From the NCBI RefSeq assembly GCF_009931435.1, contig NZ_CP043414.1: 64,000 bases of DNA. One strand, given 5' to 3'. The translations under genes and the position numbers were made by a program. The notes under the pieces are model-generated. The model had not been told where the DNA came from. It did no database searches and saw only the letters and a program-made list of their open reading frames with translations. Each line of letters starts with the position of its first letter. Position 1 is the stretch's first letter. Source of the stretch: Escherichia coli. Its GTDB lineage: Bacteria; Pseudomonadota; Gammaproteobacteria; Enterobacterales; Enterobacteriaceae. Of this stretch, positions 7,438 through 10,602 are shown piece after piece.

Positions 7438-9126
7438 TTGCAATTTGACTACATCATTATTGGCGCCGGCTCTGCCGGCAACGTCCTCGCGACACGTCTG
7501 ACTGAAGATCCGAACACTACCGTGCTGCTGCTTGAAGCGGGCGGCCCGGACTATCGCTTTGACTTCCGTACCCAAATGCCCGCTGCGCTGGCGTTCCCGC
7601 TACAGGGTAAACGCTATAACTGGGCGTATGAGACCGAGCCGGAACCGTTTATGAACAACCGTCGCATGGAGTGCGGACGCGGTAAGGGGCTTGGTGGATC
7701 ATCACTGATCAACGGCATGTGTTACATCCGTGGTAACGCGCTGGATCTCGATAACTGGGCGAAAGAACCCGGTCTGGAGAACTGGAGCTACCTCGACTGT
7801 CTGCCCTACTATCGCAAGGCCGAGACTCGCGATGTGGGCGAGAACGACTACCACGGCGGTGATGGCCCGGTGAGCGTCACCACCTCCAAACCCGGCGTCA
7901 ATCCGCTGTTTGAAGCGATGATTGAAGCGGGCGTGCAGGCGGGCTACCCGCGCACGGACGATCTCAACGGCTATCAGCAGGAAGGTTTTGGCCCGATGGA
8001 TCGCACCGTCACGCCGCAGGGCCGTCGCGCCAGTACCGCGCGCGGTTATCTCGATCAGGCCAAATCGCGCCCTAACCTGACGATTCGTACTCACGCTATG
8101 ACCGATCACATCATTTTTGACGGCAAACGCGCGGTGGGCGTCGAGTGGCTGGAAGGCGACAGCACCATTCCGACCCGCTCGGCGGCGAATAAAGAAGTGC
8201 TGTTATGTGCAGGCGCGATTGCTTCACCGCAGATCCTGCAACGCTCCGGCGTCGGCAACGCTGGACTGCTGGCGGAGTTTGATATTCCGCTGGTGCATGA
8301 ATTACCTGGCGTCGGCGAAAATCTTCAGGATCACCTGGAGATGTATCTGCAATATGAGTGCAAAGAACCGGTTTCCCTCTACCCTGCCCTGCAGTGGTGG
8401 AATCAGCCGAAAATCGGTGCGGAGTGGCTGTTTGGCGGCACCGGCGTGGGTGCCAGCAACCACTTTGAAGCAGGTGGATTTATCCGCAGCCGTGAGGAAT
8501 TTGCGTGGCCGAACATTCAATACCACTTCCTGCCGGTAGCGATTAACTACAACGGCTCGAATGCGGTGAAAGAGCACGGTTTCCAGTGCCACGTTGGCTC
8601 AATGCGCTCGCCAAGCCGTGGGCATGTGCGGATTAAATCCCGCGACCCGCACCAGCATCCGGCGATTTTGTTTAACTACATGTCGCACGAACAGGACTGG
8701 CAGGAGTTCCGCGACGCGATTCGCATCACCCGCGAGATCATGCATCAACCGGCGCTGGATCAATACCGTGGCCGCGAAATCAGCCCCGGCGCGGAATGCC
8801 AGACAGATGAGCAGCTCGATGAGTTTGTGCGTAATCACGCCGAAACCGCCTTCCACCCATGCGGTACGTGCAAAATGGGGTACGACGAGATGTCCGTTGT
8901 GGATGGCGAAGGCCGCGTGCACGGGCTGGAAGGATTACGCGTAGTCGATGCGTCAATTATGCCGCAGATCATCACCGGCAATCTGAACGCCACGACCATT
9001 ATGATTGGCGAGAAAATGGCGGATATGATTCGCGGACGAGAAGCGTTGCCCAGAAGTCTGGCGGCGTATTTTGTGGCGAATGGGATGCCAGTAAGAGCGA
9101 AAAAACTGAATCGCGATTTGAACTAA
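7438..9126 (+). CDS. betA: choline dehydrogenase BetA (GMC oxidoreductase)
   Basis: FAD-binding motif [11 protein letters not shown] at the N-terminus; likely TTG start at 7438 preceded by AGGAGG and just after the betB stop. The track extends the ORF to 7393, overlapping betB. Confidence 0.93.
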
Positions 9127-9323
9127 CGCAGGAACTTACAAGATTGAGAGTTACCGTTCTACGATAAGGACCGAATCCTTATATAAAAAACATAGGTAAC
9201 TCTCATGCTTCATATCCAGTATTCATGATGCTGGTTTTTTGCTGATGTTTTTACCAGAATATTCCTGATACAGACTATTAATTCAAGCTTATCTGCGACA
9301 GATTTCATTTTCTGGATATATTA

Positions 9324-9906
9324 TGAGTGACAAATCAAACAGGATATCGATCTGATTGAAATTTTATTTTATCTGAAGAAAAAGATTCGTGTTATTCTGT
9401 TTATTATAGCTGTTTGTATGACAATGGTGCTATTATTTCTGTACATCAATAAAGACAATATAAAGCTGAGTTACAGCCTAAAAATAAACCACACAACATC
9501 AGGCATACTTGTAAGCTGTGATAGCAATAATAACTTTGCCTGTCAGACCACAATGACTGAAGATGTTATTCAGCGAATTACGAGTTTTTTAGACCAGTAC
9601 TAATGCTAAAAATTGCCTTGTCAAAAAAATGGTAGATGAATACAAACAAAACTCTGGGCAGTAATAAACAGCATTCTGATAGAGAGTGCCTGTATAAAGC
9701 TGAAGTGACAATGACCGGGAAGGGAGCCCGTCTTCAGGAATGGATTCCTGTCTTTTTCACTGTAAATATCCTGGCATTATTAATGTCAGGATATTTACAG
9801 AAGAGCAGCATAACCATGACGGAACGGGGTTAAGTCAGGTTGTCCTTAACGCTATTCACAACCTCGTATACCGCCTTCAGGTTTATGTCCAGACTTCATA
9901 TCTCTC
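9324..9906 (+). pseudogene. possible degraded gene (position where K-12 carries ykgH), frame-shifted short ORFs
   Basis: Three consecutive short ORFs in three different frames (9418..9603, 9636..9833, 9740..9952) in an AT-rich stretch; ATG at 9324 hits a stop after 10 codons and the +1 frame continues with a KKK-anchored hydrophobic segment. Assignment is by synteny only. Confidence 0.25.
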
Positions 9907-10602
9907 TCAGCAATCCTCAATAATCAGATACACCGCTTTCACCGGACCATGAACCCCGACGACTTTGATAAGCTCAATGTCCGCCGTTGAACTAGGACCA
10001 CTGATGATGTTAATACATGACGGCATTCGTTCACCGGCCTGCGCTTTCTGATGCAATTTTTCTGCGAGTTGCGCTACACGCGGCAGGATTGTGCTTTTAC
10101 GCAGGATAAAAAGAGAAGATTCCGGGAGCAGGCTCAATGAACGCCCGCGCCCGGCGGCGGAAAAAAGAACCACGCCACCCGATTCGGTTAAACCATATTC
10201 AGCATATACGACGCCCACTTTAGCCTGCTCTGCTTGTGATATGTTCTCAATACCTTTCGCCGGATCCCAAACAACGGCATTGCATTCCTGCTGCAAACGT
10301 TCGCTAATCCCCAATTCCTCCAGCCTCGTGTCACCGCTAATCACGACCGACTGCTCTCCCAGCTCTTTACACAGACATATTGCAGCTTCTGCGGCCTGCG
10401 CCTCGCTGGTCAGTTCACAGCGCGTCAACATAACATCGCTGGCAAACTGGATAAACGCGTCACAGCGCTGCTGTTGGTTAAGTTCGGTAAGCCGCTCGTT
10501 AGCATAGTTGTTAAGCGGCGCATCTTCTGCTTGCGGTTCAAGTCGCTGCGGGCGACCCAGTGCCTGAGCAACGTTATTCAAAAATTCGCTCCGATTATCC
10601 AT
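9907..10602 (-). CDS. ykgG: LutC-like protein YkgG
   Basis: Track ORF 9907..10755; likely start at MDNRSEF (231 aa), ATG overlapping the ykgF stop region. Confidence 0.88.
   Translation of the reverse strand: MDNRSEFLNNVAQALGRPQRLEPQAEDAPLNNYANERLTELNQQQRCDAFIQFASDVMLTRCELTSEAQAAEAAICLCKELGEQSVVISGDTRLEELGISERLQQECNAVVWDPAKGIENISQAEQAKVGVVYAEYGLTESGGVVLFSAAGRGRSLSLLPESSLFILRKSTILPRVAQLAEKLHQKAQAGERMPSCINIISGPSSTADIELIKVVGVHGPVKAVYLIIEDC

Follow-up and report, generated by a model that had tools for sequence, protein, structure and literature searches.

The remnant of ykgH between betA and ykgG in a rare lineage of Escherichia coli

The spacer between betA and ykgG in the window (the whole 64,000-nt stretch of E. 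coli DNA that was analysed) almost certainly holds, as far as can be judged from its sequence, a pseudogene of ykgH, a gene destroyed by three lesions. It is an ordinary and already-annotated pseudogene allele of a known gene. The short allele carried by the window is old and is shared by a rare lineage of E. coli.

The spacer and its match to YkgH

The spacer (9127-9906, 780 nt) lies between the stop codon of betA, which ends at 9126, and the stop codon of ykgG on the - strand (9907-9909). The ORF running up to 9126 is betA (choline dehydrogenase, + strand). The convergent neighbour that bounds the spacer is ykgG (lutC-like, 9907-10602, - strand), identified from the ORF list and from the RefSeq annotation of sister loci (696 nt, LutC/YkgG family); ykgF and then ykgE are found beyond it. 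The spacer is AT-rich, as had been remarked before: its GC content is 0.28-0.38 over 9100-9800, whereas betA has 0.55-0.62 and ykgG about 0.50.

The earlier note on this DNA had read the spacer as a decaying gene, possibly the equivalent of ykgH, and the check proposed there, i.e., a frameshift-aware tblastn of K-12 YkgH, supports that reading. With the K-12 protein (222 aa) as a query against 9000-10000, residues 4-89 match 9331-9588 (78/86 identical, 91%, E 4e-54), in the frame found just after the premature stop, and residues 207-222 match 9614-9661 in a different frame (15/16 identical, 94%, E 1e-7). Given the first of these E values, the remnant pattern is far beyond chance. The remnant has the orientation of betA and, like K-12 ykgH, lies between betA and ykgG. 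K-12 ykgH (b0310, uncharacterized inner-membrane protein YkgH) and the remnant are alike in the position of the start codon, the stop codon, the 3'UTR and the terminator. They differ in that the remnant would have been inactivated by deletions of 1 bp, 2 bp and 324 bp, and in that its left half is a haplotype that differs by 8-11% from K-12, 042 and GF43. The intact reading frame of 222 codons is absent: there is a stop after 10 codons, then a second frameshift, and 108 codons are deleted.

The same allele, with identical lesions, is present in RefSeq as a pseudo-CDS, «hypothetical protein, incomplete» (Z0117EC0005 NBY12_RS05155; E200086). It is 99.5% identical over the 780-nt spacer, with four single-base differences, and is not named ykgH by RefSeq. 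In sister genomes, PGAP marks the equivalent of 9334-9588 as a pseudogene («hypothetical protein; incomplete; missing C-terminus»). No evidence against the pseudogene status turned up in the present analysis.

The name ykgQ, which we take to be that of a K-12 pseudogene near the betA/ykgG spacer, corresponds to no feature annotated between ykgG and ykgH in the copy of NC_000913.3 that was searched. The three consecutive short ORFs reported for the spacer are recovered in the mechanical ORF list (9418-9603, 9636-9833 and 9740-9952). They do occupy three frames, but the pieces derived from ykgH occupy only two (2, 1, 2). The internal deletion of 324 bp and the sharing of an old allele by 15 complete genomes also go beyond what the earlier note had predicted.

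Lesions, distribution and decay of the short allele

Lesions were called by DNA alignment against three intact alleles (K-12, 042 and GF43), and all three are common to the six short alleles aligned. The first one affects codon 3, where 1 bp is deleted (GAA to GA at 9329-9330): the loss of an A changes ATG AGT GAA CAA into ATGAGTGACAA and the frame ends at the stop TGA 9353-9355. Translation and allele alignment place the original start codon and the resulting dead-end ORF of 10 codons, MSDKSNRISI*, at 9323-9355 (+ strand). The premature stop described in the earlier note is present; the ATG to which it was attached, given as 9324, is in fact 9323-9325, i.e., off by one. The frame-shifted N-terminal remnant (YkgH aa 4-89) follows at 9331-9588 (+ strand) according to tblastn, translation and PGAP. 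Its first transmembrane helix is 9385-9447 (helix 22-42 in the AF2 model), and the TM-like segment previously noticed after KKK is indeed found by translation just past the premature stop, as KKK-IRVILFIIAVCMTMVLLFLYI at 9376-9447.

The second lesion is a 2-bp deletion after «...CGAATTAC», inside a divergent patch of 30 nt (9583-9612, + strand, from the alignments), and it leads to the stop TAA 9601-9603. The segment that was scored (9583-9616, containing the patch) is identical to every intact allele at 24/34 positions and among short alleles at 34/34. The third lesion is a clean gap of 324 bp with its junction at 9612|9613, so that aa ~95-205 are missing, and with them the greater part of the periplasmic domain and of TM2. 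Beyond it, tblastn and translation identify what is left of the C-terminus (YkgH aa 207-222, CLVKKMVDEYKQNSGQ), up to the original stop codon (TAA 9662-9664), at 9614-9664 on the + strand. A simple deletion does not account for the 30-nt patch at the junction, and this is the one detail left unexplained. A source was sought in ykgH, on both strands, and across the whole window, and nothing better was found. The patch, which lies to the left of the junction, may represent filler DNA introduced when the deletion occurred, or else what is left of a lost divergent haplotype.

Of 5426 complete E. coli genomes, 15 have the short allele, which matches in them as a single piece of 776-780 nt with 96.9-99.5% identity; all other complete genomes match the spacer in two pieces. 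About 4800 of the 5426 carry a spacer of ~1100 nt with an intact gene annotated ykgH, as in K-12. The base-by-base alignment covered six short alleles (the window and five of the fifteen) and one contig bearing an IS2. When the surrounding 6.8 kb are compared, these 15 genomes again come out ahead of all others (97.2-98.7%, vs. at most 96.1% for the rest), thus the short allele lies on a haplotype of its own. The frameshifts and the deletion could also be put down to errors of sequencing or assembly, ykgH being in reality intact. The 1-bp deletion does adjoin a short run of A, a typical site of error, but identical lesions occur in complete genomes that were sequenced independently and come from various countries and hosts, as well as in a protein of metagenomic origin, so that the chance of such an artefact is negligible.

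The relatives of the window show further decay. The start codon ATG has become ATA in 2017-02-2CC and in 2020CK-00188, and the latter has an extra 1-bp deletion. In GCA_964257775.1 (L012 4160-5500), an IS2 with a 5-bp target duplication, ACGAG, is inserted in the already-deleted short allele, exactly where the divergent patch begins. Disabling lesions shared by descent are found together with independent later lesions in relatives, as in a pseudogene. IS2 was also considered as the cause of the 324-bp deletion and was rejected, since with its intact duplication inside an already-deleted allele it is a later event.

Over codons 4-87, the window compared with intact alleles gives dS of 0.23-0.35 and dN/dS of 0.10-0.13; dN/dS among the intact alleles themselves is 0.05-0.25. 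These values suggest that ykgH is a real gene under purifying selection and that most of the divergence is older than the inactivation. Variation among the short alleles affects 6 nonsynonymous and 2 synonymous sites, vs. 7:14 in the comparison with K-12 (Fisher p = 0.09). The changes within the short alleles would thus be near the neutral expectation, this contrast in N:S being only suggestive.

From its sequence, the short allele would no longer allow a functional YkgH to be made. The longest product from a canonical start is of 61 aa (internal ATG 9418) and is devoid of half of TM1 and of everything beyond aa 89. One may nevertheless suppose that a shortened membrane peptide is still encoded and functional, either as the 61-aa ORF (9418-9603) or as YkgH obtained by programmed frameshifting. 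The 86 N-terminal codons are free of stops in their own frame, and the divergence of the remnant from intact alleles is mostly synonymous. However, the latter is explained by a divergence that arose before the inactivation, whence the low dN/dS of the remnant, and the changes among short alleles are mostly nonsynonymous. Moreover, the TGA at 9328-9330 closes the frame just before Q4, and the first canonical start (9418) falls inside TM1, leaving 9 hydrophobic residues. Sister alleles also disrupt this ORF, by the 1-bp deletion in 2020CK-00188 and by the IS2 in L012. Residual coding of this kind is thus very improbable, although slightly less so than an artefact of sequencing.

A second mechanical ORF, of 65 aa (9636-9833, + strand, ORF list), extends over the 3' end of ykgH, its 3'UTR and its terminator. 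It contains a hydrophobic stretch, WIPVFFTVNILALLMSGYL, and none of the 9 alleles compared interrupts it (N:S 12:8). A single RefSeq sister genome has it annotated, as a hypothetical protein (WP_064735138.1), and it has no match in Pfam or NCBIfam. As its reading frame crosses the terminator hairpin of ykgH, it is probably spurious and probably not a gene.

The two halves of the spacer have different histories. Over the left half (9127-9582), the identity between K-12 and 042 is no more than 93%, and that between the short allele and the various intact ones lies within 88-92%, the remnant in the window scoring 89-92%. As to the right half, the DNA matches intact alleles at 95-99%, the window being 99% identical to 042. 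It must be noted that N96 and 2020CK-00188 have a different right haplotype (94-95%), which shows recombination after the deletion. More generally, the 5' half of ykgH and the region upstream of it are hypervariable in E. coli and the 3' half is much more uniform, which makes the locus a mosaic of deep haplotypes. No complete genome among the 5426 has an intact version of the left haplotype (once the short alleles are set aside, the best match falls to 94%), nor was any visible in the protein clusters (next best 91%), where clustering at 90% identity could hide one. An exhaustive HMMER search gave full-length relatives of YkgH of 211-229 aa with 21-30% identity. As these distant homologues are full-length and align across the part missing here, the long form is taken as ancestral. 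In other E. coli, ykgH is also often broken, and many IS fusions and in-frame deletion variants are present in the protein database.

The following history can be proposed. An ancestor would have carried an intact ykgH of 222 codons, coding for an inner-membrane protein that is confined to Escherichia and has two transmembrane helices as well as a small periplasmic domain, on a deeply diverged haplotype of a hypervariable, AT-rich locus. In that haplotype, the 1-bp, 2-bp and 324-bp deletions would have inactivated the gene. The dead allele would then have undergone neutral drift and been joined by recombination to different flanks on its right side, and in sister strains it would have gathered additional damage. 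No break is seen in the non-coding parts: the terminator of betA, the upstream region, and the 3'UTR of ykgH, terminator included.

Non-coding parts of the locus

The 3'UTR of ykgH is unbroken at 9665-9757 (+ strand) and ends, according to the terminator scan, with an intrinsic terminator (hairpin 9735-9750 followed by TCTTTTT). It is identical to other alleles at 94-98 of 98 positions, and a northern probe designed for K-12 maps to 9708-9737 with 2 mismatches in 30 bases. In K-12, the ykgH 3'UTR is a candidate Hfq-dependent sRNA from RIL-seq, with many Hfq-dependent chimeras and a target motif (PMC5145812). RNA-seq reads accumulate on it, and two northern probes were negative (PMC8175672). 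The window has thus in common with 3'UTR-derived Hfq-dependent sRNAs, for which the K-12 «ykgH 3'UTR» candidate stands, the homologous sequence and the terminator at 9665-9757; the candidate is unconfirmed by northern blot even in K-12 and is a putative RNA in this lineage.

From these data it could be imagined that the protein gene is dead and that the locus survives as an RNA gene, 9665-9757 giving an Hfq-binding small RNA from an untranslated transcript. The chimeras and the pile-up of reads observed in K-12 are in favour of it, as are the perfect terminator, the few mismatches to the probe and the near identity of the alleles, and it would explain why the 3'UTR is unbroken. Against it, in addition to the negative K-12 northern blots, no Rfam family matches: over 8900-10100, even with E allowed to reach 10, the scan gave nothing but noise, in the form of eukaryotic models for miRNA and lncRNA that fell far short of their gathering scores. 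The fold of the 3'UTR is not unusually stable (z -1.4), and the adjacent non-functional segment 9763-9906 is about equally conserved (134-144 of 144 positions), i.e., there is no excess of conservation. Besides, the 324-bp deletion may have taken away any internal promoter. Since excess conservation, an Rfam match and unusual stability are all missing, the survival of an RNA gene is considered unlikely, though clearly less so than that of a functional peptide; the plain ykgH pseudogene remains the preferred reading.

At the other end of the spacer, the 3' flank of betA (9127-9245, + strand) consists of a long conserved hairpin (~9145-9205) and of the intrinsic terminator of betA (stem-loop 9216-9234 and T-run). 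The RNA fold of this flank has an MFE of -38 kcal/mol vs. -20.3 for shuffled sequences (z -5.4). Across 7 alleles its stems, including the outer one of 11 bp, do not vary, and compensatory changes are absent. In many genomes, the match begins at query position 86 (window 9212), directly after this hairpin. A genomic region of ~6 kb bounded by ykgH and betA is listed for the ExPEC strain BEN2908 in one paper, hence the site just past the hairpin may be an insertion point. The C-terminus of BetA is polymorphic as well (window 9100-9126): the protein has 562 aa (AKK and 6 residues) in the window, 042, N96 and others, and 556 aa in K-12. The difference comes from a 1-nt indel in or after the run of A just before the TGA of K-12.

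YkgH as a protein and the meaning of the remnant

K-12 YkgH has no match above cut-off in Pfam or NCBIfam, and its close relatives are confined to Escherichia. Below the thresholds, it resembles Wzz (PF02706, 18.5 for a cut-off of 25.5) and GNVR (PF13807, 10.6 for a cut-off of 27.7). Most of the distant homologues scanned likewise match the N-terminal motif of Wzz, as well as GNVR, below threshold; only P0060 passes the GNVR cut-off (33.2). All seven PDB profile matches are polysaccharide co-polymerases (PCPs), though they are weak (best E 0.0045). A first AF2 model, built on an alignment of near-identical E. coli sequences, had a pLDDT of 52 and was left out of the fold search. A second one, with distant homologues in the alignment, had a pLDDT of 82 and was used for Foldseek. 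The top 40 matches are all Wzc, WzzB, KpsE or WzzE, with a best E of 2.5e-4 and a TM-score of only 0.46-0.50.

The layout of the intact YkgH family appears to match that of PCPs (WzzB, WzzE, FepE, Wzc, KpsE), i.e., an N-terminal «EIDLIEL» motif, TM1, a periplasmic alpha/beta domain with a long helix, and TM2. Unlike them, YkgH is ~100 residues shorter than Wzz, falls below the Pfam cut-offs and lies outside any polysaccharide locus. The neighbours of ykgH are betIBA and ykgEFG, and not genes of polysaccharide synthesis or export; no such genes were seen either on the contigs of the distant homologues, where the context is uninformative. Judging from these profiles and from the predicted fold, the YkgH family (~210-230 aa; K-12 ykgH L001 1696-2364, P0056-P0080) appears to be a miniature Wzz/PCP-like inner-membrane protein, and not a demonstrated member of the PCPs. 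This likeness was not found stated in the literature that mentions ykgH. In that literature, the locus is described as poorly expressed and possibly silenced (PMC8497626), the Keio mutant of ykgH appears in the list of a Congo-red screen (PMC5745457), and a SNP in ykgH arose in an L-form line (bioRxiv 10.1101/2024.11.06.622226).

The PCP-like look of YkgH is a testable hint for an uncharacterized gene of K-12. As for the remnant, the pseudo-CDS «hypothetical protein, incomplete» of at least 15 RefSeq genomes can be named ykgH pseudogene. The carriers of the short allele are a natural knockout, devoid of YkgH and with the 3'UTR kept, and could serve to separate the sRNA candidate from the protein; if the RNA gene did survive, the lineage would be a natural separation-of-function allele. 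The remnant of ykgH is one more dispensable, AT-rich and probably silenced accessory gene that decayed in one lineage of E. coli.
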